Source: Isurus oxyrinchus (Eukaryota). Taken from it: 64,000 nt of DNA. Location of the stretch: NCBI GenBank assembly GCA_026770705.1, contig JANJGN010000052.1:992001-1056000 (forward strand), in the 5' to 3' direction. The translations under genes were made by a program, and so were the position numbers. This document shows, piece after piece, positions 1 through 63,147 of the stretch (position 1 is the first letter of the stretch; each line of letters starts with the position of its first letter). The notes under the pieces are model-generated. The model was given only the letters and a program-made list of their open reading frames with translations, made no database searches and was not told where the DNA came from.

Positions 1-145
1 CTGGAAGCTATCACCAGGTTATTGAGAATCAGACAGTGTGTTATAATAAGCTGTGTTTTGTGTTAATATGTAAATGTCACAGTTTGTGTTATTTCCCATT
101 GAGTGTTGAATGTGAATTGTTGAGTAATTATAACACAGCACTTAC

Positions 146-514
146 CAGAAACGTGAAGCTGGGTTACAGGATAGTAGTTGTAACTATTACTGCTGTCAAA
201 TTCTATTCTGAAAAAATAAGGTCCTGCATCTTCCCGTCTGATGTTCTTTATAATCAGGGAACAGTCGCCATCTTTCAGGTCTCCAGACAGCCGGGTCCGA
301 TGGCGGAACCGTGGTAACTCGTGACTGTGATCCTTGGAGTGAAAGGCAATAGGAGCCCAGGGAATCTGTTTCTCATTATTAAACCAGACTCCACCTCGCG
401 GTTGGTTTTCCAGACACGATGGATAACTGTAATGACAAGGAATCTGTACACACGAACCTTCCTGCGCTGTCACCTCTCGTGGAGTGTCACCTTTCCACTC
501 TTGTGAGGGTTCAA
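146..514 (-). CDS. Siglec-like gene A, second V-set Ig exon (V2)
   Basis: Acceptor tttctctccccag| and donor TCTG|gtaag; 369 nt, phase 1-1, open. Siglec V-set pattern: GSCVQIPC, GDCSL (B-E strand Cys pair) and F-strand YFFRIE with the sialic-acid-binding Arg. Confidence 0.9.
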
Positions 515-579
515 CTGGGGAGAGAAATCTCAATATTTAACTCTGGATGGTTTGTGGATCCACTAGACTCAACTTTACA

Positions 580-16357: not shown

Positions 16358-16497
16358 TCAAACAGTCTGTCGACTTCCTTTCACTGTTTGTCTCTCCCAG
16401 ACACAGACTCCAGCGATAGTGATAACCACAGCCACAAGGAATATCACAGCTCGTATTCCCAGGATCAGGATCACGTGCAGAATCTCTCCTCCACTGT
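16358..16497 (-). CDS. Gene C TM exon with intramembrane Arg and short tail
   Basis: ttctctag|, phase 1; SGGEILHVILILGIRAVIFLVAVVITIAGVCVWERQTVKGSRQTV then TGA. Confidence 0.82.
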
Positions 16498-18171
16498 CTA
16501 GAGAACACACAGAAAGAAATCATCACTGACTCTCCGCTTTCAATCTCTCACTCTGGCTGAACAATCAAGCTTCATATCACTGCAACATTTGCTGTAATAT
16601 TGACCCATCCACTGGGATTCAATGTGGAATGAATGTTTTCATTGTAAACACTCTAAGAGTGGACAATCGGAACTTTCCCCTTAGCGTGGAACATTGGTGA
16701 GAATGGATCATTGTGCTGTTGGACTCCCTGTCCAATGTTTCTCTCCGTCGCTGTGTACAGGATTGTGCTGTAGAAAATTCTGGAAACGTTTAGTGCAGCG
16801 TGGAAATCCATCTCGGACGCGTGTGCGAATCGGGCATTTTCGAGATGGACTCCCCCACGGACTTACACCCCCCGCTTAATAAACAGTTCCAATCTTTACC
16901 CAGAGAGAGGGGAGAATGTGGAACTCGCTCCCACTGTGAGTGATTGAGGTGAACAGTATCGATGTATTTAAGGGGCAGGAGGGTCGGTAACCAGAGGGAC
17001 ACAGATTGATGAACCGGAGGGGGAGATGAGGAGAATTTGTTTTGACAGAGCGAGTTGTTGTGATCTGGAAGGTGCTGCCTGAAAGGGCGGTGGAAGCAGA
17101 TTCAATAGGAACTTTCAAAAGGGAAATTGGATAAACACTTGAAGGAGGAAGATGGGGGCAAAGTGGAGTGGTGGTTAGTGGATCTGATTGGATAGATCAT
17201 TGAAAGACCTGGCACAGGCACAATGGGCTGAATGGCCTCCTCCTGTGCTGTATCATTCTCTGCTTCCATTATCTCTCCCCCAGTCAGTAACCACTCCAGA
17301 TCCCTCTTGAAGGTGACAGAGAATCAGCAACCACCACACCCACTGACAGCACATTACCGAGGATCCCTACTCTCTGGGAAAAGATGAAGTCCCCAACATC
17401 CAGCCTATTCCTGCTTCCCAGAGAGTGTAACCCTTCAGGGAGGCGCTGAGGAAGTTTTCAATAAAATGAGTTATCAAATCTACCATTTGAGAAATAATTT
17501 AATTCTGATGATCTCAATGCTTGTGGAGCAAACTGGGAAGTAGATTTGCTTGAAAAGCTGGGAAACACAAGGATTAAGTGCTACAATGCCACCACTGGTG
17601 GAAGGCTGTAACTACAGCGTGACGTTTACATAGGCAGTCATCATTATAAACAGGGGCATTGGACATATTGGGAATTATGTGCACGGAAATAGTGAGAACA
17701 CGATGTAATCTTTTCACCAGCAAGAATTCTCGTACTAAACCTCTTCACCTCTGTTTTAATCTCAGATACACAAAAAAAATCACAGAATCAGATAAGGAGG
17801 AGTTGGGACTAGTTCTTCGTCAAAGGGTTAGGTTTCAGGTACCTCCTTAAAGGGAGAGAGAGAGAGTTGGAGAAGCAGATAGTATCTACGAGTGCCTCTA
17901 TGCATCTGAGTGTTTGTACGAGTAATTTCCATATTCTTCCATAAATATGAATGGGAACACGAATCCCAGAATTCAGCCCACTCTCCAGTGCAGTACTGAG
18001 GGAGGTCAGGTAACCCATGAGGGAGTCTTGTGCCAGTGTGTTTGTTTGTGAGTGTGTCTTTGTGTGTGGTCATATATGTGTGTCTACACGTGTCTATTTA
18101 GGTCTGTATGTTTGAGGGTGTTTGTGTAGTGTTCGAATCTGTGAGAGATGTTGAAGTCTGTGTACACTCAC

Positions 18172-23750: not shown

Positions 23751-23867
23751 TTATAAATTCCCATAAACAGAATCCTTGGCAAAATCACAGTTTGCGTAAA
23801 GATCATCATCTGTATCAGGATTGACTCCGCGGTTAGATTTCATTTCCAGATCCTTCTCATCTTTCTT
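23751..23867 (-). CDS. Gene B terminal coding exon (LYANC, SVYGNL)
   Basis: tttctattacag|, phase 0; KKDEKDLEMKSNRGVNPDTDDDLYANCDFAKDSVYGNL then TAA. Confidence 0.8.
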   Translation of the reverse strand, partial: KKDEKDLEMKSNRGVNPDTDDDLYANCDFAKDSVYGNL

Positions 23868-23964
23868 CTGTAATAGAAACAGAAATGATCAGAGTGACAA
23901 TCAGAGTGATCAGTGTTTAGTATTATTGATCCAAATCGAAAATTGCACCCACAATACATACATT

Positions 23965-25228
23965 AATTATTGACACTGAACAGGGTTTGATTATTGATAC
24001 TGAACGGGGTTTGATTATTGATTCTGAACGGGGTTTGATTATTGATACTGAATGGGGTTCGATTATTGATACTGAACGGGGTTTGATTATTGATACTGAA
24101 CGGGGTTTGATTATTGATACTGATGGGATTTGTTTATTGATTCTGAACGGGGTTCGATTATTGATACTGAACGGGGTTTGATTATTGATACTGAATGGGG
24201 TTTGATTATTGATACTGAACGGGGTTTGATTATTGTTACTGAACGGGGTTTGATTATTGACACTGAACGGGGGTTGATTATTGATACTGAACGGGGTTTG
24301 ATTATTGATACTGAACGGGGTTTGATTATTGATACTGAATGGGGTTTGATTATTGATTGTGAATGGTGTTTGATTATTGATACTGAACGGGGTTTGATTA
24401 TTGTTACTGAACGGGGGTTGATTATTGACACTGAACGGGGGTTGATTATTGATACTGAACGGGGTTTGAATATTGATACTGAACGGGGGTTGATTATTGA
24501 TACTGATCGGGGGTTGATTATTGATACTGAACGGGGGTTGATTATTGACACTGAACGGGGTTTGATTATTGATTCTGAACGGGGTTTGATTATTGAAACT
24601 GTACGGGGTTTGATTATTGATTATGAACGGGTTTTGATTATTGATACTGAACGGGGTTTGATTATTGACACTGAACGGGGTTTGATTATTGATTCTGAAC
24701 GGGGTTTGATTATTGATACTGTACGGGGTTTGATTATTGATTATGAACGGGTTTTGATTATTGATACTGAACGGGGTTTGATTATTGATTATGAACAGGT
24801 TTTGATTATTGACACTGAACAGGGTTTGATTATTTATACTGAACGGTGTTTGATTATTGATCCTGAACGGAGTTTGATTATTGATCCTGAAAGGGGTTTG
24901 ATTATTGATACTGAACTGGGTTTGATTATTGATACTGAACTGGGTTTGATTATTGATTCTGAAAGGAGTTTGATTATTGATACTGAATGGAGTTTGATTA
25001 TTGACATTGAACGGGGTTTGATTATTGATTCTAAACGGTGTTTGATTATTGAACCTCAACGCAGTTTGATTATTGATACTGAACGGGGTTTGTTTATTGA
25101 TTCTGAACAGTGTTTGATTATTGATTCTGAAAGGGGTTTGATTATTGATACTGAACGGGGTTTGATTATTGATTCTGAATGGGGTTTGATTATTGATACT
25201 GAACGGGGTTTGATTATTGATTCTGAAC
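23965..25228. repeat. 24-bp minisatellite (tgattattgatactgaacggggtt), about 50 copies
   Basis: Direct inspection; lies in the last intron of gene B. Confidence 0.95.
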
Positions 25229-25363
25229 TGTGTTGGGTGTGAGTTTGGTTGGGTTTGGGAGTGACTGTATAAAACATTGCAGATACAGGACTGGAGCAGC
25301 CATATCAATAACCAGGCTACTGGAGCAGCTGAGAGGCTGGGGATCCTGTGGTGTGTGACTCAC

Positions 25364-25468
25364 CTGATTCCTCAAAGCCCAACCACGCTCACAGTTTTCA
25401 TAAACAGGACCTCGATATTCATCAACACGGTGGTTCGATTTGATTCCTGCTTTCCCCTTGCCTCTCTT
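25364..25468 (-). CDS. Gene B cytoplasmic exon 2 (VYEN motif)
   Basis: tctctattacag| and CAG|gtgagt; 105 nt, phase 0-0; KRGKGKAGIKSNHRVDEYRGPVYENCERGWALRNQ. Confidence 0.7.
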
Positions 25469-25980: not shown

Positions 25981-26065
25981 CCAGGACCTGTCCGACTGCT
26001 CGCCTGGGGAGGAACTGCCCATACGCTCTGCTTGGGCTGAATGACCTCTTCCTGTGCTGCTCCCT
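25981..26065 (-). CDS. Gene B cytoplasmic exon 1
   Basis: acacacag| and CTGG|gtaagt; 85 nt, phase 2-0, which exactly bridges the TM exon and the next exon; GSSTGRGHSAQAERMGSSSPGEQSDRSW. Confidence 0.72.
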
Positions 26066-26717: not shown

Positions 26718-26814
26718 TTTCTCACACACTTGAAGATGAAGAATCCACTCAGTCCAACACTCAAACAGATTCCAGCTCCAAGCAATCCTGCTTTCCATTC
26801 ATTGGAATCTCGCC
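26718..26814 (-). CDS. Gene B transmembrane exon
   Basis: gattttacag| and GAAA|gtaagt; phase 1-2; (W)RDSNEWKAGLLGAGICLSVGLSGFFIFKCVRK, a 20-aa hydrophobic run followed by basic residues. Not shown in this frame by the ORF track. Confidence 0.85.
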
Positions 26815-27139: not shown

Positions 27140-28040
27140 GTCATGAATGGTGATGGACAACTAAAGATCTAACAGGAGGAGGATGTTCCACAAATATCCC
27201 CATCCTTAATGATGGGGGAGCTCAGCACATCAGTGCAAACGACAAGGCTGAAGCATTGGCAACCATGTTCAGCCAGAAGTGCTGAGTGGATGATCCATCT
27301 CGGCCTCCTCCAGAGGGTCCGAGCATCACAGATGTCAGCTTTCAGACAATTCGATTGACTCCACGTGACATCAGGAATCAGCTGATGATACTGGATACAG
27401 CAAAGGCTATTGGCCCTGGCAACAACCCGGCAACAGGAAATAATGTGGCTACAAGAGCGGGTAAGAGGCTGGGAACTCTGCAGTGAGTAACTCACCTCCT
27501 GACTCCCCAAAGCCTGTCCACCATCGACAAGGCACAAGTCAGGAGTGTGATGGAATAATCTCCAAATTCCTGAATAAGTGCAGCTCCAACAACACTCAAG
27601 AAGCTCGACACCATCCAGGAGCAGCTTGTTTGATCGACAGCCCATCCACCAGCATAAACATTCATACCCTCCACCACTGGCACACAATGGCAGCAGTGTG
27701 CACCATCTACAAGATGCACTGCAGCAACACACCAAGGCTCCTTCGACAGCACCTTCCAAACCCTTAACCTCTTCCACCAAGACAGTTCCAAGTCAGTGTG
27801 GTGTGTGACTTGGAGGTGAACTTGAGGTGTTGATCTTCTATGAGACTTGGAACTATATCGGCCGTTCCTTCACCGTTGCTGGGTCAAAATCCTGGAACTC
27901 CCTCCCTAACAGCACTGTGGGTGTGCCTACACCACATGGACTGCAGTGGTTAAAGAAGGCAGCTCACCACCACCTTCTCAAGGGGCAGTTACAGATGGGC
28001 AATAATTTCTGGCCTTGTCAACAATGCCCACATCCCATGA
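27140..28040 (+). mobile_element. Non-LTR retrotransposon fragment (inverted copy ~54125-55040)
   Basis: Same family as 46687-47750 (VATRAGxRLG.., KAQVRSVME, TTLKKLDTIQ, GSKSWNSLP). Confidence 0.75.
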
Positions 28041-28078: not shown

Positions 28079-28360
28079 ATTCCACAGTGATGGTTATGAA
28101 CCCCTGCACTGCTCCATGTTCATTCTCTGCCACACACTGATAGTCTCCCGTGTCCCTGGATGTAACGTGAGGAATCACCAACCGCAGCTCATTGTTGGAA
28201 CTTGTTCTGTTCATTGGGACATTAAGATGTCGCCACGTCAGGTTAGAAGCTGGGAAGCTCTCGACAGAGCAGATTATCACTGCAGAATTCCCCTCAATTA
28301 TATTGATCGATGAAGCGTTAATCAAATCAAGAGAAGTAAATGAGAGATTCTGTGGTGCGT
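28079..28360 (-). CDS. Gene B Ig C2 exon, copy 3
   Basis: 282 nt, canonical splice sites, near-identical to copies 1 and 2. Confidence 0.9.
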
Positions 28361-29263
28361 CTGAAAATAAATAAAGGTTTCATTGTGAGCAAACACAGTG
28401 CACAGCAAGACTCCAGGTATCATCTCTCTCCATCTGGTGTCTATGTGCATGTCAAGGCTTCTTTCTCCATTATAAGTTTCTATGTCACCATTTGTAACAG
28501 ACACTGCCAGTGTGTTCCTTTTTGCATATTCATGGGAAGTGGATGTATCTATCTAGACCAGCATTTATTACCCATCCCTAATTGCCCTTGAGGAGGTGGT
28601 GGTGAGTTTTTCACCTCCAGAGGATTCCCAGCCTCTGACCGGCTCCTGTAGCCACAGTATTTATGGCCGGTCCAGTTCGGTGTTTGGTTAACATCCCCCA
28701 GGATGTTGATTGTGGGGGATTCAGTGATAGTAAACTCACTGAACATCAAGGGGAGATGGTTAGATTCTCTCTTGTTGGACATGATCACTGCCTGGTGCTT
28801 GTGATGCATTAATTCTCATTTCTCAGCCCAAGCTGAGTGTTATTCAGCTCTTGCTGCATGTGGATATGTAAACTGTCACGCTGTAATTACAGCCTTCCAC
28901 CAGAGGAGACACTGTCAGGCTAGAAGAAAACAAAATGTCTTTCACATCATCAGGAGGTTCACAGGGATTTGACAGTGGAGGAATTGCTTTAGAATAATGG
29001 GGTATTGAGTGATAAACCTACAATTCTCTGTGCAGGTGACTGCTCGTCCAATACAGGGTCTTGTTCAGCTGATATTGTCAGTGTTTCAGAGCAGAATCTG
29101 CAGCAACACTCCAGTGCAGCACAGGGAGAACAGACAACTCACACATGTCTGTGTGTGTGTGAGCAAGCACACGTGTGATTCTGTATGTATGCTTCTGTGT
29201 GTGAGCATGCAGGCGTGCACACCTGTGCACATGTGGGATTGCACATGAATGCTTGTTTGTATG

Positions 29264-29343: not shown

Positions 29344-29625
29344 ATTCCACAGTGATGGTTATGAAACCCTCCACTGCTCCATGTTCATTCTCTGCCACAC
29401 ACTGATAGTCTCCAGTGTCCCTGGATGTAACGTGAGGAATCACCAACCACAGCTCATTGTTGGAACTTGTTCTGTTCATTGGGACATTAAGATGTCGCCA
29501 CGTCAGGTTAGAAGCTGGGAAGCTCTCGACAGAGCAGATTATCACTGCAGAATTCCCCTCAATTATATTGATCGATGAAGTGTTAATCATATCAAGAGAA
29601 GTAATTGAGAGATTCCGTGGTGCAT
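29344..29625 (-). CDS. Gene B Ig C2 exon, copy 2
   Basis: 282 nt, canonical splice sites, near-identical to copy 1. Confidence 0.9.
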
Positions 29626-31958: not shown

Positions 31959-32240
31959 ATTCCACAGTGATGGTTATGAACCCCTCCACTGCTCCATGTT
32001 CATTCTCTGCCACACACTGATAGTCTCCAGTGTCCCTGGATGTAACGTGAGGAATCACCAACCACAGCTCATTGTTGGAACTTGTTCTGTTCATTGGGAC
32101 ATTAAGATGTCGCCACGTCAGGTTAGAAGCTGGGAAGCTCTCGACAGAGCAGATTATCACTGCAGAATTCCCCTCAATTATATTGATCGATGAAGCATTA
32201 ATCATATCAAGAGAAGTAATTGAGAGATTCTGTGGTGCAT
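31959..32240 (-). CDS. Gene B Ig C2 exon, copy 1
   Basis: 282 nt, phase 1-1; APQNLSI...ICSVESFPASNLTW...DTGDYQCVAENEHG. Confidence 0.9.
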
Positions 32241-32919: not shown

Positions 32920-33216
32920 CTTGCACAGTTAGTATGAGGGTCCGCTCCGATGAAACAGATGGATATCTCACTCTGCAGCTGAGAGTGTGTCCGTGGTGTT
33001 TGAGTGATGGGATCAGGGTCAGAACAGAAGTATAGGTCAGAGTGACACCATGCTGAGTTACAGTGTTTGAGACTGATCCACGTACGTCAGTGGGAGTGTC
33101 CCAGGTTAAGACAGGTGCTGCTGTTCCATTGCACGTTGTGTTGAAGGTGCAGCTTACATCCACAGGCTTTCCTGCAATAATTTCAGCAGGGAATATCGTG
33201 GGTTTATCTGTGAAAT
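32920..33216 (-). CDS. Gene B Ig C2-type exon (Siglec domain-2-like)
   Basis: ctgttag| and CAAG|gtaag; 297 nt; DFTDKPTIFPAEIIAGKPVDVSCTFNTTCNG...LTW...LSCRV, with the extra Cys typical of Siglec domain 2. Confidence 0.9.
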
Positions 33217-33944: not shown

Positions 33945-34313
33945 CAGAAACATGAAGCTGGGTTACAGGGTAATAGTTATGGCTCGGACCATTGTCAAAT
34001 TCTATTCTGAAAAAATAAGGTCCTTCATCTTCCCGTATGATGTTGTTTATAATCAGGGAACAGTCGCCATCTTTCAGGTCTCCAGACAGCCGGGTCCGAT
34101 GGTGGAACCGTGGTAACTCGTGACTGTGATCCTTGGAGTGAAAGGCAATGGGAGCCCAGGGAATCTGTTCCTCATTATTAAACCAGACTCCACCTCGCAG
34201 TTGGTTTTCCAGACACGATGGATAACTGTAATGACATGGAATCTGTACACACGAACCTTCCTGCGCAGTCACCTCTCGTGGATTGTCACCTTTCCACTCT
34301 TGTGAGGGTTCAA
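33945..34313 (-). CDS. Gene B V-set exon V2; open frame but acceptor mutated AG>GG
   Basis: Near copy of 146-514; acceptor reads tctccccgg| at 34314-34315; donor intact. Possibly skipped or spliced at a cryptic site. Confidence 0.65.
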
Positions 34314-37618: not shown

Positions 37619-38005
37619 CAGAAACGTGAAGCTGGGTTACAGGATAGTAGCTATAACTATTTCTGCTGTCAAATTCTATTCTGAAATAATAATATCCTGC
37701 ATCTTCCCGTCTGATGTTGTTTATAATCAGGGAACAGTCGCCATCTTTCAGTTCTCCAGACAGCCGGGTCCGATGGCGGAACCGTGGTAACTCGCGATTG
37801 TGATCCTTGGAGTGAAAAGCTATGGTCCCTCTAGACCTTGTATTCCATGTATTCCATGTGTACCATTTCACGTACCAGATTCCGACACGTGCTCTCCCTA
37901 CTACACGTGCTGGATAACTGTAGTTACATGGAATCTGTACACACGAACATTCCTGCGCTGTCACCTCTCGTGGAGTTTCACCTTTCCACTCTTGTGACAG
38001 TCCAA
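37619..38005 (-). CDS. Gene B V-set exon V1 (Arg intact, YYYFRIE)
   Basis: Canonical ag/gt, 387 nt, phase 1-1, open; Siglec Cys pattern plus an extra Cys (ECSC). Confidence 0.9.
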
Positions 38006-43306: not shown

Positions 43307-43346
43307 CTTGGAGAAGTGACAGGAGGAAGTAAGATTTCCCGATCAT
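43307..43346 (-). CDS. Gene B leader exon MIGKSYFLLSLLQ
   Basis: Paralog of 13052-13091 with the same donor; upstream acceptor ctttctctttcag| near 43389 implies a 5' non-coding exon. Confidence 0.8.
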
Positions 43347-45252: not shown

Positions 45253-45501
45253 GGTAAACAGAACGTGCTGATTACTGAGCCCCGGAACACAACCAGAGAC
45301 ACAACTAGTGAGGGGGAGACCCCAGCTCCCCGGGGTCTCTCTGAAGGTCCAGTGGGAGGCGATGTTGGACATGGGAACCCCGACAATACCGACGAGCTTC
45401 TCTACGCCAACATCAACTTTTCAAAGCTGCCCGGCGGTGACAGGACTGTGCACAGGAGCGAGGACACGGAATACGCACAGATCAGGTTCCAGAAAAACTG
45501 A
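45253..45501 (+). CDS. Orphan terminal cytoplasmic exon with ITIM (LLYANI) and ITSM-like (TEYAQI) motifs
   Basis: Acceptor tttctctgtag|, phase 0, open to TGA; motif pair and spacing as in CD33-related Siglec tails (xLxYAxL ... TEYxxI). Confidence 0.85.
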   Translation, partial: GKQNVLITEPRNTTRDTTSEGETPAPRGLSEGPVGGDVGHGNPDNTDELLYANINFSKLPGGDRTVHRSEDTEYAQIRFQKN

Positions 45502-54022: not shown

Positions 54023-54088
54023 ACTATCAGTGTGTGGCAGAGAATGAACGTGGAGCAGTGGAGGGATTTATAACCATCTCTGTAGAAC
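54023..54088 (+). pseudogene. 3' remnant of a C2 exon (YQCVAENERGAVEGFITISVE)
   Basis: Homologous to the end of 28079-28360; donor gtgagt retained; 5' part absent. Confidence 0.75.
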
Positions 54089-55353
54089 GTGAGTTACACA
54101 GAATTGAACATTCTCTTGTTGTTAGCTCATGGGATGTGAGTATTGTTGACAAGGCCAGAAATTATTGCCCATTTGTAACTGCCCCTTGAGAAGGTGGTGG
54201 TGAGTTGCCTTCTTTAACCACTACATTCCCTGTGGTGTAGGCACACCCACAGTGCTGTTAGGGAGGGAGTTCCAGGATTTTGACCCAGCGACGGTGAAGG
54301 AACGGCCGATATAGTTCCAAGTCCCAGGGCAGACCACCACCACAAGTTAACCTCCAAGTCACACACCTCACTGACTTGGAACTGTCTTGGTGGAAGAGGT
54401 TAAGCGTTTGGAAGGTGCTGTCGAAGGAGCCTTGGTGAGTTGCTGCAGCGCATCTTGTAGATGGTGCACACTGCTGCCATTGTGTGCCAGTGGTGGAGGG
54501 TATGAATGTTTATGCTGATGGCTGGGCTGTCGATCAAACAAGCTGCTCCTGGATGGTGTCGAGGTTCTTGAGTGTTGTTGGAGCTGCACTCATCCAGCCA
54601 AGTGGAGATTATTCCATCACACTCCTGACTTGTGCCTTGTTCGATGGTGGACAGGCTTTGGGGAGTCAGGAGGTGAGTTACTCACCACAGAGTACCCAGT
54701 CTCTGACCCGCTCTTGTAGCCACATTATTTCCTGTTGCCGGGTTGTTGCCAGGGCCAATAGCCTTTGCTGTATCCAGTATCATCAGCTGATTCCTGATGT
54801 CACGTGGAGTCAATCGAATTGTCTGAAAGCTGACATCTGTGATGCTGGGACCCTCTGGAGGAGGCCGAGATGGAGCATCCACTCAGCACTTCTGGCTGAA
54901 CATGGTTGCCAATGCTTCAGCCTTGTCATTTGCACTGATGTGCTGAGCTCCCCCATCATTAAGGATGGGGATATTTGTGGAACATCCTCCTCCTGTTAGA
55001 TCTTTAATTGTCCATCACCATTCATGACTGGATGTGGCAGGACTGCAGAGCTTAGATCTGACCCGTTGGTTGTGGGATCGCTTTGCTCTGTCTATAGCAT
55101 GTTGTTTCCGCTGTTTGGTGTGTATGTAGTCCTGTGTGTCACCTCAGCAGCTTGGCACCTCTGTTATATGTGAATCCTCCTTATAGAAACCTGCATGTAC
55201 ATGGATATTATCAATAAATATTACATAGATAAATGTTATTTGTATAGACCTTTCATGCATAGACAATGTCACTTCACAAGTTCAGAATTACTACATGTAC
55301 ATAGGGAACCATTCTCAAACTGTACCGGAGTCATTCATTGGCTGATTTTACAG

Positions 55354-55450
55354 GGCGAGATTCCAATGAATGGAAAGCAGGATTGCTTGGAGCTGGAATC
55401 TGTTTGAGTGTTGGACTGAGTGGATTCTTCATCTTCAAGTGTGTGAGAAA
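55354..55450 (+). pseudogene. Inverted duplicate of the gene B TM exon
   Basis: Matches 26718-26814 with intact splice sites; no intact ectodomain exons seen upstream. Confidence 0.75.
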
Positions 55451-55777
55451 GTAAGTGTGAAGGTTTAATTGGTTGTTTTCGAAAATGTTTTCTTCAAACT
55501 TCTCCCCTTATAGAAAGAACTTTCATTTCTATAGCACCTTTCACAACCCAAAACCCTTCACAGCCCCTGAAGAATTTTGATGTTCACCTACTGTTTAACA
55601 TCTCATCCAACACTCACTGTTTCACAACTCAGTCCTGTAACAGGCAGTGTTGACCCGGACCATAAGATACCTTGTGACCTACTGAGGATGTGAAAGGTGC
55701 TATACAAATGAAAACCTTTCTTTTGTTAGTGAATGCAATCTCTTTCCTTTTTCCATGTTTCATTCACTCTCTCTTAT

Positions 55778-55965
55778 CTCCACTAATGCTCTCTTCTCAT
55801 TCTCTCTCTCATTCACTCTCTCTCCAATCTCCACTAATGCTCTCCTTCTCATTCTCTCTCTCATTCACTCTCTCTCCAATCTCCACTAATGCTCTCCTTC
55901 TCATTCTCTCTCTCATTCACTCTCTCTCCAATCTCCACTAATGCTCTCCTTCTCATTCTCTCTCT
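55778..55965. repeat. 52-bp tandem repeat, about 4 copies (single copy in the paralog near 26355-26400)
   Basis: ctccactaatgctc starts at 55778, 55829, 55881 and 55933. Confidence 0.85.
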
Positions 55966-56256
55966 CGTCCTCTTACACAATGTTCAGTATCTCACATTTT
56001 TAAGGAGCGCTGAGCAACATCTGCTCCTTCAGAAGATCCACCTCAACACCTGGAGTGAGCAGTGATTTGCAACTCGCTCACCAACTGCTCAGCTTTACAC
56101 AGGAATCACGTCACAGAGTCAGGACACAAAGGGTTAACAGTTTGCTTACAACACAACACTAAGGCCTACGTTTCAGTGAAAGGGTTTTCACAATTGTTCC
56201 CCAATTCCTGATTTTACTCACAGAGACACATCAACCCTTTCTCATTAAATACACAG

Positions 56257-56341
56257 AGGGAGCAGCACAGGAAGAGGTCATTCAGCCCAAGCAGAGCGTG
56301 TGGGCAGTTCCTCCCCAGGCGAGCAGTCGGACAGGTCCTGG
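56257..56341 (+). pseudogene. Inverted duplicate of cytoplasmic exon 1
   Basis: 85-nt paralog; splice sites intact. Confidence 0.7.
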
Positions 56342-56784
56342 GTAAGTAACGGAACGATTGGAATTCACTTCCACGACCAACACCATCCTTTGTTGATGTT
56401 GTGACTTTATAAAGACAGATTCCAATAACTGATGCCTTTGAAAGATTTCTACTGATTATTGAGATCTGGGTGTGAGGCTCAAGTCTGTTGTACAGAACAT
56501 CTTTCTAGCTCAAGGGATGAGGGAAGAGCAGGGACATGAGCTTTGGGGTGTCCTGAGCAGGTGAAAGGCGATATAGAAATGCAAGTCCTTCATTGTTTTA
56601 CTTTCTTAAAGCCTTGTAACTCTCTGCAGAGCACATATCATCCCACAGAGAATGAAATTAGTCTGTGAAGACATTGTCTAAAAGCGGTTCTGATCTCTCG
56701 AGAGGTGTCGGACAAGAGGTGAGGTCTCATTAACTCATTTCTCTTTCACAGCTTGAGAACCAATGAAATACCTGGGAGTGGACA

Positions 56785-56824
56785 ATGATCAGGAAATCTT
56801 ACTTCCTCCTGTCACTTCTCCAAG
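56785..56824 (+). pseudogene. Leader exon copy MIRKSYFLLSLLQ
   Basis: Paralog of 13052-13091; no V exon follows. Confidence 0.7.
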
Positions 56825-57611
56825 GTAATATCATTGTCAGCTCGGACAGATTTATGGCTAATCATCTTTGTAAAACATAATTCTTATTGAGCTGTGATTG
56901 GGAACAGATTCAGCAGTGAGCCAGTGTACAATCTCACACCAAGTCCCATTCACCCATCACCCCTGTGCTCACTGATATACACTGACTCCCTGTCTGACAG
57001 CAGAATTGGAGGAGAGCAGAGGACTTTGAGGTTTGCATGGTTGGAGGAGAAAGTGATTGGAGAAGAGGAATGGAGGGAATGGAAATTGAGGATGAGAATC
57101 TTAAACTCGAGGCTCTGCTGGACTGGGAGCCAGTGCAGGTCAGCGAGTGGCGGAGGGCGTGAGGTGTTGAGTTGAGAAACAGTGATAAATACTGGGGGAT
57201 GAAGTCTATCCTGATGCTTGGACTCCGATAGCAAAGGAATGAAATTTGTGTCTTTTGTTGATTTTAATCAGAATTTCCCATGAAGACAACACAGCAGCTC
57301 CTAGAATAGACAGGCTGTTCAGTGTCACACTTCCTGTCCATTCTCACCTTGCTAGATACTTCAATAAGGGAGCAAGATAACTGAAAGAGAGAAGGAAGGT
57401 AAAGCTGTCCGTGTGTAAAGGTGTCAATATTCAGTTTGCATATTTGTCTTTCTCTCGACACATGCAGAGCTCAGGCTAGAGGCACTTTGTTAGTGTGTTT
57501 CACAGTGTCTGCTGGAGTAGGGTCAGTGCTGAGCTTGGGGACAAGTCAGTCTACAATGCTGCATCGGAATCAACAATACAACAATATGGGGTTTGGATCA
57601 GAAATAATCCC

Positions 57612-57762
57612 TCAGACAATGAGGATCCAAAGAGATTCCATAGACAATGAGGATCCAAAGAGATTCCTTAGACAATGAGGATCCAAAAAGATTCCTTAGA
57701 CATGAGGATCCAAAGAGATTCCTCAGACAATGAGGATCCAAAGAGATTCCTTAGACAATGAA
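57612..57762. repeat. 27-28-bp tandem repeat (agacaatgaggatccaaagagattcc)
   Basis: About 5 copies by inspection. Confidence 0.85.
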
Positions 57763-58402
57763 CATACAAAGTGCACCAATGATAGTGAATCAGATTAGCC
57801 AATCAGCTGTGTTGAAGAGCAGACAGGAATGTTAGGCTAATTAGTGATTCATGACGGTGATAATGGGGGGAGTTCTGAGGGCTCCTAATCCATTGTCCTG
57901 TCTTGTAAATCAGCACCTTAATACTGACCCTCCAACAGTGCAGCACTCCCTCAGTACTGATCCTCCAACATTGCAGCACTCCCTGATTAATGTCCCTCTG
58001 ACAGTGCAGCACTCCCTCAGTACTGACCCTCAAACAGTGGAGATCTCCCTCAGTACTGACCTTACAATAGTGCAACACTCGCTCAGTAATGACCATCCGA
58101 CAGTGCAGCACTTGCTCAGTACTGACACTGGGGAGTTTCAGTCTACTCTGTGGGGCAGACGTCCCCTGAATCGGGTCTTGAATCCCACAACATTCTGACC
58201 CCCTGAATTTGGCTGTGAAACCCACTGACCCACAGGAGAAACTCCTGGTCATTGACTGTCCACCTGTGAGCAGAAATATCACCACAGGGTCAGGACACAA
58301 AGTTCACCAACATCTCAAAACATGAGCTGCTCTGTCACTTTGATCCAACTTCCTCATTTTGTCTCACAGAGACACATCAACCCTTTCTCACTAAATACAC
58401 AG

Positions 58403-58487
58403 AGGGGGCAGCACAGGAAGAGGTCATTCAGCCCAAGCAGAGCGTGTGGGCAGTTCCTCCCCAGGCGAGCAGTCGGACAGGTCCTGG
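58403..58487 (+). pseudogene. Further copy of cytoplasmic exon 1
   Basis: 85-nt paralog about 450 nt upstream of the gene D leader. Confidence 0.7.
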
Positions 58488-58937
58488 GTAAGTAACGGAA
58501 CGATTGGAATTCACTTCCACCACCAACACAGTCCTTTGTTGATGTTGTGACTTTATAAAGACAGATTCCAATGATTGATGCCTTTGAAAGATTTCTACTG
58601 ATTATTGAGATCTGGGTGTGAGGCTCAAGTCTGTTGTACAGAACATCTTTCTGGATCAAAGGATGAGGGAAGTGCAGAGACATGAGCTTTGGGACATCCT
58701 GAGGAGGTGAAAGGTGCTATAGAAATGCAAATCCTTCATTGTTTTTCTTTCTTAAAGTCTTGTAACTCTCTGCAGAGCACCTATCATCCCACAGAGAATC
58801 AAATTAGTCTGTGAAGACATTGTCTAAAAGCAGTTCTGATCTCTCGAGAGCTGTCGGACAAGAGGTGAGGTCTCATTAACTCCTTTCTCTTTCACAGCTT
58901 GAGAGTGAGAAGTGGATGGAATATCTGGGAGTGGACG

Positions 58938-61329: not shown

Positions 61330-63007
61330 GTGAGTGTACACAGACTTCAACATCTCTCTCAGATTCGAACACTACACAAACACCCTCAAACATACACATC
61401 TAAGTAGACACATGCAGACACACATATATGACCACACAGAAAGACACACTCACACACAAACACACTAACACACACTCCCCTGTGGGCTACCTGACCTCCC
61501 TCAGTACTGCCCTGGAGAGTTGGCCTGAATTCTGGGATTTGTGTTCCCATTCATATTTATGCAAGAATATGGAAATTACAAAGTCTATTACAGACACTCA
61601 GATGCATAGAGACACTCACAGATACTCTCTGCCTCTCCAACTCTCTCTCTCCCTTTAAGAAGCTTCCTGAAAGCTCACCCTTCGAACAATCACCAGTCCC
61701 AAATCCTCCTTATCTGATTTGTGTGATTTTCTTTGTGTATTTGAGAGTAAGAGAGAGGTGGAGAGGTTTAGGAGGAGAATTCCTGTTGGTGAAAAGCTTA
61801 CATCATGTTCCCACCTTTCCAGTGCCCATATTTCACATGATGTCCAATGTCCTTGTTCATAATGGGAATTGCCTATGTAAACATCACGCTGTAGTTACAG
61901 TCTCCTACCAGTGGTGGCATTGTAGCACTTAATCCTTGTGTTTCCCAGCTTTTCAAGCAACACCACTTCCCAGTTTGCTCCACAAGCTGTGAGTTCATTG
62001 GAATTCAATTATTTCTCAAACGGTAGATTTGATGTCATTTTATTGAAAACTTCCTCAGTGCCTCCCTGAAGGGTTTACACTCTCTGGGAAGCAGGAATAG
62101 GCTGGATGTTGGGGAGTTCATCTTTTCCCAGAGAGTAGTGATCCTCGGGAATGTGCTGTCAGTGGGAGTGGTGGTTGCTGATTCTCTGTCGCCTTCAAGA
62201 GGGATCTGGAGTCGTTACTGACTGGGGGAGAGATCATGGAAACGGAGAATGATACAGCACAGGAGGAGGCCATTCAGTCCATTGTGCCTGTGCCAGGTCT
62301 TTCAATGTTCTATCCAATCAGATCCACTAACCACCATTCCAATTTGCCCCCATCTTCCTCCTTTAAGTATTTATCCAATTTCCCTTTTGAAAGTTCCTAT
62401 TGAATCTGCTTCCACCGCCCTTTCAGGCAGCACCTTCCAGACCACAACAACTCGCTCTGTCAAAACAAATTCTCCTCATCTCCCCCTCCGGTTCGTCAAT
62501 CTGTGTCCCTCTGGTTACCGACCCTCCTGCCCCTTAAGTACATTGATACTGTTCACCTCAACCACTCCCTGTGGGAGCGAGTTCCACATTCTCCCGTCTC
62601 TCTGGGTAAAGATTGGAACTGTTTATTAAGCGGGGGGTGTAAGTCCGTGAGGGAGTCCATCTCGATCCTGCCCGATTCGCACACGCGTCCGAGATGGATT
62701 TCCACCCTGCACTAAACGTTTCCAGAATTTTCTACAGCACAATCCTGTACACAGCGATGGAGAGAAACATTGGACAGGGAGTCCAACAGCACAATGATCC
62801 ATTCTCACCAATGTTCCACGCTAAGGGGAAAGTTCCGATTGTCCACTCTTAGAGTGTTTACAATGAAAACATTCATTCCACATTGAATCCCAGTAAATGG
62901 CTCAATATTACAGCAAATGTTGCAGTGATATGAAGCTTGATTGTTCAGCCAGAGTGAGAGATTGAAAGCGGAGAGTCAGTGATGATTTCTTTCTGTGTGT
63001 TCTCTAG

Positions 63008-63147
63008 ACAGTGGAGGAGAGATTCTGCACGTGATCCTGATCCTGGGAATACGAGCTGTGATATTCCTTGTGGCTGTGGTTATCACTATCGCTGGAGTCT
63101 GTGTCTGGGAGAGACAAACACTGAAAGGAAGTCGACAGACTGTTTGA
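63008..63147 (+). CDS. Gene D TM exon with intramembrane Arg and short tail
   Basis: Inverted paralog of 16358-16497; CGA at 63052-63054; TGA at 63145-63147. Confidence 0.82.

Follow-up and report, generated by a model that had tools for sequence, protein, structure and literature searches.

Gene B and its tail exons

The window analysed here is a 64,000-nucleotide stretch of the Isurus oxyrinchus genome (assembly GCA_026770705.1, contig JANJGN010000052.1, positions 992,001 to 1,056,000), to which all coordinates below refer. On its minus strand lies gene B, an intact Siglec-like receptor gene described by a 10-exon model in which every intron is GT-AG and the frame stays open for 657 amino acids; this frame omits the second V exon, whose acceptor reads GG, and joins the remaining exons at GT-AG sites. 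Upstream of the tail exons lie the first cytoplasmic exon, a transmembrane (TM) exon, three Ig exons, a C2-set exon, two V-set exons and a signal exon. The features, with the evidence for each, are:

43307..43346, minus strand: signal-peptide exon (N-terminus matches relatives; in frame with V1)
37619..38005, minus strand: V1, V-set Siglec domain with the F-strand arginine in YYFRIE (Pfam V-set and Ig_CD22; AG/GT sites, open frame)
33945..34313, minus strand: second V-set exon (V2), acceptor GG (Pfam V-set and Ig_CD22; predicted to be skipped in frame)
32920..33216, minus strand: C2-set exon (Pfam C2-set_2)
31959..32240, minus strand: Ig exon a (Pfam domain search and exon model)
29344..29625, minus strand: Ig exon b (Pfam domain search and exon model)
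28079..28360, minus strand: Ig exon c (exon model; RNA contig joint to the TM exon, 26814/28080)
26718..26814, minus strand: TM exon, membrane segment uncharged, cysteine at the inner membrane edge (sequence; aligned tails)
25981..26065, minus strand: first cytoplasmic exon, 85 nt, phase 2 to 0, no tyrosine (model; RNA joints on paralogue L033)
25364..25468, minus strand: second cytoplasmic exon with VYENC (25405-25391), a partial duplicate of the last exon (DNA alignment; RNA joints on L033)
25280..25386, minus strand: old LINE fragment forming the end of the second cytoplasmic exon and its splice donor (identity to LINE copies)
23966..25228, no strand: intronic 24-bp minisatellite, 52.7 copies (sequence)
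23751..23867, minus strand: last exon, with acidic run, LYANC, SVYGNL and stop (139 genome matches; RNA joint on L033)

The ectodomain carries the features by which Siglecs are recognised. An N-terminal V-set domain related to those of MAG, CD33 and sialoadhesin is represented by both V1 and V2, each of which matches Pfam V-set and Ig_CD22, and the best solved-structure relatives of V2 are MAG, Siglec-5, -8 and -10, and CD33. The F-strand arginine by which Siglecs hold sialic acid is present in V1, and V2 has a position that aligns with the MAG arginine; the Siglec cysteine pairing, between the strand B region and strand E, appears as a pattern in V1, and V2 aligns with MAG. A C2-set_2 domain comes next after the V domain, as the Siglec definition asks. 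The V1 domain would be expected to bind sialylated ligands, and V2, with its GG acceptor, is probably skipped in frame. A V exon at window positions 63-536 shows the same translated pattern as the GG-acceptor exon at 33945-34313 and is likely skipped in frame as well. The nearest annotated proteins to gene B come from white and basking shark, mostly at 82-95% identity.

Gene B shares with MAG and the CD33-related Siglecs (including the paired Siglec-5/14 and -11/16) the V-set domain with F-strand arginine, the Siglec cysteines and the C2-set stalk, and its cluster shares with them a grouping of genes with common ectodomains and differing signalling ends, a likeness in sequence features that implies no orthology to the mammalian CD33 group. 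Reviewed mammalian CD33-related Siglecs have either ITIM and ITIM-like tails or a charged TM segment used with DAP10/12 (PMC8710542, in part), whereas the tail class of gene B has neither an ITIM pair nor a charged TM segment as a conserved feature.

The first-pass annotation had reported three YxN motifs in the tail, and we found each of them where it had been placed: VYENC at 25405-25391, LYANC at 23801-23787, directly preceded by DTDDD at 23816-23802, and SVYGNL at 23771-23754 (to 23751 with the stop), which ends the protein, all on the minus strand. The span 23751..25468 thus comprises two exons (25364-25468 and 23751-23867) and a 1.5-kb intron with the 24-bp minisatellite, and the length of this intron differs widely among paralogues. 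The tyrosines of LYANC and SVYGNL lie 11 residues apart; a fourth tail tyrosine, in DEYRG, is not a YxN site and is replaced by histidine in 3 of 55 paralogous exons. Searches of the two tyrosine-bearing tail exons against Pfam found no family. In shuffled sequences, three or more YxN motifs occur in the 106-residue tail with P=0.0006, a figure that is overstated because one motif duplicates another, and two in the last exon with P=0.008; the stronger evidence is the conservation of the motifs seen in alignments across species. Adaptor-coupled Siglecs have a charged membrane segment and a short tail, and gene B has an uncharged segment and a tail of about 100 residues. CD33-type tails pair a proximal ITIM with a distal ITIM-like motif or ITSM, and in gene B the proximal tyrosine has Asp/Asn at -2 and Cys at +3.

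Conservation across sharks, rays and skates

Among 168 proteins there were 27 distinct ends with a tyrosine four residues from the C-terminus, 23 of which carry a second tyrosine 9-11 residues upstream (21 identified by script, and two skate tails with a spacing of 10 by eye). Represented among the 23 tails are lamniform, carpet, ground, sevengill and saw sharks as well as a sawfish, a devil ray and two skates. The last tyrosine has Asn at +2 in all 23, with positions +1, +3 and -2 variable, and the first has Asn at +2 in 21. Conservation in other species, which the first-pass annotation had named as a check, was therefore found from sharks to skates, and the YxN character that it assigned to all three motifs proved to be the conserved element. 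At +3 of the first tyrosine, 20 tails have Cys, three have Trp, Tyr or Phe, and none has Leu, Ile, Val or Met; at +3 of the last, Leu or Ile occurs in 8 and a hydrophobic residue of any kind in 21, with Lys or Thr in two. The spacing of the two tyrosines is 11 in 20 tails, 10 in two and 9 in one (spacers of 7, 6 and 5 residues). Two lamniform paralogue types have lost the Asn at the first tyrosine and kept the Cys (YKSC, YETC).

Selecting proteins on their first cytoplasmic exon gave 21, of which 17 ended in the motif and four models ended otherwise. The cysteine at the membrane edge is present in 14/14 aligned tails of the YxN class, as against 10/23 tails of the ITIM class. As judged from these alignments, YxN is the signal that the tail class has kept, and the ITAM and the ITIM are not. 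The class is as old as the shark-ray split, which dates to about 250-300 million years ago. A profile search for the tail beyond elasmobranchs gave seven hits, the five looked up being sharks or rays, and every one of the 120 relatives listed for P0061 was either elasmobranch or unnamed; a short motif may drop below the threshold of such a search, and chimaeras or bony fish may still carry the tail. Since YAN is found within the ITIM of the inhibitory class too, YxN is a common element of the Siglec-like family. In two stingray proteins, P0089 and P0152, tails like those of the inhibitory class stop right after the first tyrosine motif (YANI, YANV), a truncation that leaves a terminal YxN.

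Copies, splicing and the origin of the VYENC exon

The tail that the first-pass annotation described as unusual in gene B turned out to be family-wide. Genome-wide, 139 matches to the last exon were found: 137 lie on a group of contigs of 0.15-4 Mb, and two divergent ones lie on contig C34. The second cytoplasmic exon has 95, and the same group of contigs holds at least 150 matches each to an ITIM-type last exon (407 candidates, 150 scored) and to an Arg-containing membrane exon (237 candidates), all of these being counts of exons, not genes, that may include both haplotypes. The YxN tail, by its sequence, is the third tail class of a large paired-receptor cluster; the earlier proposal that it is neither of the ITIM/ITSM kind nor adaptor-coupled holds. 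The three types of end occur on the same contigs with near-identical ectodomains, as paired receptors require. In a quick tree of V and C2 domains (63 rows, SH-aLRT support only, rows without a classed tail left out), the sequences group by lineage with the tail classes mixed (support 100 for sevengill, 99 for carpet sharks, 99 for rays and 92 for lamniforms). Ectodomains that sort by lineage and not by tail class correspond to the paired-receptor pattern of shared ectodomains.

A sample of 100 last exons, weighted towards variants, was taken from the 139, and 79 had enough upstream DNA for scoring. A full chain from the TM exon precedes 47 of these, 34 intact and 13 broken as scored from TM through last exon; in four the second exon is present and the full chain is not within the stretch, and 28 have no second exon upstream. 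Among the 34 intact chains, 32 carry three YxN sites and two carry two. Upstream of two orphan last exons lie the signal and V exons of another gene, on the opposite strand. Within the genome's own copies SVYGNL is unchanged in 97/97 last exons and YENC in 55/55 second exons, and the middle tyrosine is His in two copies. Tests for purifying selection on the tail exons within the genome gave no significant result among these very young copies, with pN/pS of 0.35 for the TM exon (p=0.08), 0.66 for the second exon (p=0.28) and 0.76 for the last exon (p=0.51); the values for intact copies only (1.56) and for orphans (1.41) were likewise not significant.

Several other members of the cluster were seen along the way. 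L031 and L032 (G000:C34, ~15.13 and ~15.18 Mb) are divergent members without the second exon, in which the first tyrosine has lost its Asn and kept its Cys (YETC, YKSC) and the last site is YGNV or YVNV. In the window, 45253-45501 (plus strand) is a last exon of the inhibitory class with ITIM and ITSM-like motifs; no matching TM or first cytoplasmic exon was found within the window, and it may be an orphan. Arg-containing membrane exons of the adaptor-coupled class lie at 16361-16498 (minus strand) and 63007-63144 (plus strand), and the Arg-class gene at 16-20 kb has a frameshifted V exon and one partial Ig exon. An inverted partial copy of gene B at 54023-58526 (plus strand) contains the end of an Ig exon, an identical TM exon and two first cytoplasmic exons, and is devoid of tyrosine exons. 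In the inhibitory-class genes L111:234-5146, P0024 and P0048 the cytoplasmic exon pair is duplicated, so that tail-exon duplication recurs in the cluster. P0115, P0116 and P0120 bear the YxN tail on another type of V domain, with a MAG-like N-terminus, which suggests that tails and heads have been shuffled among receptors.

The tail exons and frame assumed by the first-pass annotation agree with RNA contigs (from runs presumed to be RNA) aligned to paralogue L033, which show the predicted joints; with paralogues 96-100% alike, such contigs report splicing of the gene family, not of the gene B copy. GT-AG joints were found from the TM to the first cytoplasmic exon in run X5, and from the first to the second and from the second to the last in X2 and X5. 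Contigs of X1, which is one sample with X2, have loose ends that match the predicted tail joints, and those of X13 gave none of the predicted tail joints on L033. The same three-exon tail in the same frame occurs in basking shark P0039 and white shark P0115. In X1 and X2 there is also a joint from the TM exon (26718-26814) to the second cytoplasmic exon (25364-25468), possibly with letters between; if it is direct, the frame shifts and all tyrosines are lost, and such an isoform seems to exist. With the first cytoplasmic exon skipped, the frame-shifted tail stops 8 nt before the last junction, and under the 50-nt rule a stop so placed would escape decay. The white shark model P0146 skips the second cytoplasmic exon and keeps two sites, and in several paralogues the acceptor of the VYENC exon reads GG. 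Exon choice would set the number of sites at three, two or none.

The second cytoplasmic exon aligns to the last exon from the 3' end of the intron through the Y-x-N-C codons, where the alignment stops; with flanks it scores 112 against a shuffle maximum of 48, and the exons alone score 47, a value reached by 0/1000 shuffles. From about 25386 downward, the DNA is 72-75% identical, in antisense, to LINE copies at 27439-27521, 54647-54729 and 28617-28686, and the splice donor of the second exon falls inside this fragment. Near 47.1 kb, a related LINE copy immediately follows a reverse-transcriptase reading frame, whose match scored 29.4 bits, just under the cut-off of 29.6. We infer that the VYENC exon is an old duplicate of the last exon that was cut by a LINE, which made it internal and supplied its donor. 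The exon, mostly with a WALRNQ-like end, is found in whale, zebra, bamboo, smooth-hound, basking and white shark models, and is absent from the sevengill and sawshark models examined; across 9 distinct copies, the tyrosine is kept in 8, YxN in 7 and the Cys in all 9. We also considered whether the first tyrosine of the conserved pair is a remodelled ITIM of the inhibitory class, and found no support for it, as a profile comparison aligned only 10 membrane-proximal columns (probability 24%); the phases of the two exons agree and their local sequence is similar.

Readings of the YxN tail

The reading that we prefer, at a probability of about 0.55, is that the three-YxN tail would dock Grb2-family adaptors in the manner of immunoglobulin-tail tyrosine (ITT)-like motifs, and not SHP phosphatases, Syk or a partner chain. 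Vertebrate ITTs bind Grb2 and keep the YxN core, the only part of the motif that is strictly conserved (PMC4263166, in part); the ITT-like motifs of DNAM-1 and TIGIT recruit Grb2 (PMC7226588, in part), and CD22 uses a YEN motif with Grb2 (PMC5302901, in part). The shark tails have the Asn at Tyr+2 (last tyrosine 23/23, first 21/23), and they depart from the YxNM/YvNy consensus at +3, where Cys or Val/Ile/Leu dominates in place of Met or Tyr. On receptor clustering, a Src- or Syk-family kinase would phosphorylate the tyrosines behind the acidic run, the SH2 domains of Grb2, GRAP or Gads would read pY-x-N, and these adaptors would recruit SOS, Vav or SLP-type scaffolds to the membrane, so that the tail would act as a built-in adaptor of the LAT/NTAL type. 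LAT and NTAL/LAB themselves combine a membrane-edge cysteine, palmitoylated in LAT-type adaptors, with several YxN sites that follow acidic residues; they have almost no ectodomain and more sites, and the likeness to the shark tail is one of features alone. The membrane-edge cysteine of the shark tail may be palmitoylated too, which fits its presence in every aligned YxN-class tail and in fewer than half of the ITIM-class tails. As for output, we lean slightly towards co-stimulation over inhibition, a weak preference because motifs of the ITT-like kind can drive either outcome, activation in DNAM-1 and inhibition in TIGIT.

Grb2 alone does not explain the Cys at +3 (20/23) or the fixed spacing of 11 (20/23). 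The cysteine would be accounted for if the YxxC sites docked STAT3, for which the G-CSF receptor and TLT2 are precedents, either by themselves or in combination with Grb2 at the last tyrosine, and the cysteine persists in all 9 distinct second-exon copies, even those that have lost the Asn or the Tyr; TLT2, moreover, signals to STAT3 through YxxC and YxxV without a charged TM segment, an ITAM or an ITIM (PMC7516513, in part). We consider this unlikely, however, since the Asn at +2, of which STAT3 has no need, is kept as well as the Cys, three tails have Trp, Tyr or Phe instead, and the tail of P0021 keeps its Cys after loss of the Tyr, a hint of some other role for the residue. The spacing would follow if the last two tyrosines formed an atypical ITAM for the tandem SH2 domains of Syk/ZAP-70, with Cys as the hydrophobic +3 residue, an idea to which the acidic residues upstream also lend themselves. 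The spacing that the first-pass annotation pointed out indeed stands, and the spacers, all but the one of 5 residues, lie within the 6-8 residues (up to 12 in one consensus) of an ITAM, but the ITAM itself does not: YxxL/I is found at the first tyrosine in 0/23 tails and at the last in 8/23, Lys or Thr stands at the last +3 in two, and an ITAM needs no Asn at +2. Pfam ITAM (PF02189) matched none of six YxN-class proteins and did match, below the curated cut-off, two of three ray Siglec-like proteins with a true ITAM. We regard an ITAM as distinctly improbable.

Two further readings turn on the end of the protein. YxxL/V motifs have an established sorting role, and the terminal YxN-hydrophobic sequence might serve mainly in endocytosis, the receptor clearing sialylated cargo or acting as a decoy; a hydrophobic +3 residue at 21/23 last tyrosines and the apparent tyrosine-free isoform would suit this, yet the invariant Asn, the first tyrosine and the duplication of a YxN exon would be left unexplained, and we hold it to be very doubtful. 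We give least credence to the suggestion that SVYGNL, which the first-pass annotation saw to fit the ITIM consensus, is an ITIM that would make the receptor inhibitory via SHP-1/2 or SHIP. Gene B and 9/23 homologues fit the consensus S/I/V/L-x-Y-x-x-I/V/L (PMC7226588, in part), but the other 14 do not, many having Ala or Pro at -2, and ITIM and ITSM-like motifs are already provided by another class, of at least 150 tails.

The proposed docking of Grb2-family adaptors has partial precedents. CD22 (Siglec-2) is a Siglec whose tail has a Grb2-binding YEN motif (PMC5302901, in part), but there it sits among several ITIMs, whereas the conserved content of the shark tail is two or three YxN sites. 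The ITT and ITT-like receptors (membrane IgG/IgE, DNAM-1, TIGIT, DAP10, CD28) share the Grb2-read YxN core and differ in having one motif each, YxNM or YvNy (PMC4263166 and PMC7226588, in part), where the shark motifs are YxNC, in tandem, with the last at the protein end. TLT2 (TREML2) likewise represents a third signalling type in an Ig receptor cluster, with YxxC followed by YxxV; it is not a Siglec, has a single V domain, and the available part of PMC7516513 describes no Asn at +2. Our literature search found no description of shark Siglec tails, including in the available parts of PMC7226832, PMC8455134 and bioRxiv 10.64898/2026.08.25.746757; subscription journals and supplements, which lay outside its scope, may cover the cluster. 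Grb2 sites in Siglecs and receptors that signal through YxN are thus already known, and what is new, within the literature searched, is a Siglec class with two or three YxN sites as its conserved tail content.

Siglec signalling is usually described as having two modes, ITIM or adaptor-coupled. In this shark the Siglec-like tail exons number in the hundreds and fall into three kinds, one seemingly with Grb2-type sites only; inhibitory CD33-type Siglecs are said to be absent from fish (PMC7226832, in part). If our reading is true, the YxN class would offer an uncomplicated natural receptor in which to study Grb2 sites in the absence of ITIMs, paired sialic-acid receptors would have diversified early and independently, and the VYENC exon would clearly illustrate how a piece of a retrotransposon can contribute a signalling site. 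A broader proposal, which we put forward tentatively and think rather unlikely as a whole, treats the tandem Y-x-N-C-(x)7-Y-x-N-hydrophobic C-terminal motif as making the Siglec its own adaptor, docking Grb2 together with a second reader (STAT3 or Syk), with the number of sites tuned by the LINE-enabled exon and by skipping; the cluster would then combine interchangeable ectodomains with four signalling modes: ITIM, Arg-coupled, YxN and, in rays, an ITAM within the receptor's own tail. The sawfish and skate proteins P0053, P0131, P0137-P0139 and P0156 carry a C-terminal YxxL-x7-YxxL ITAM in their own tails, with a longer spacer in P0156, which we take to resemble the ITAM of DAP12; these proteins may represent a fourth class of signalling or a fusion of receptor and adaptor.
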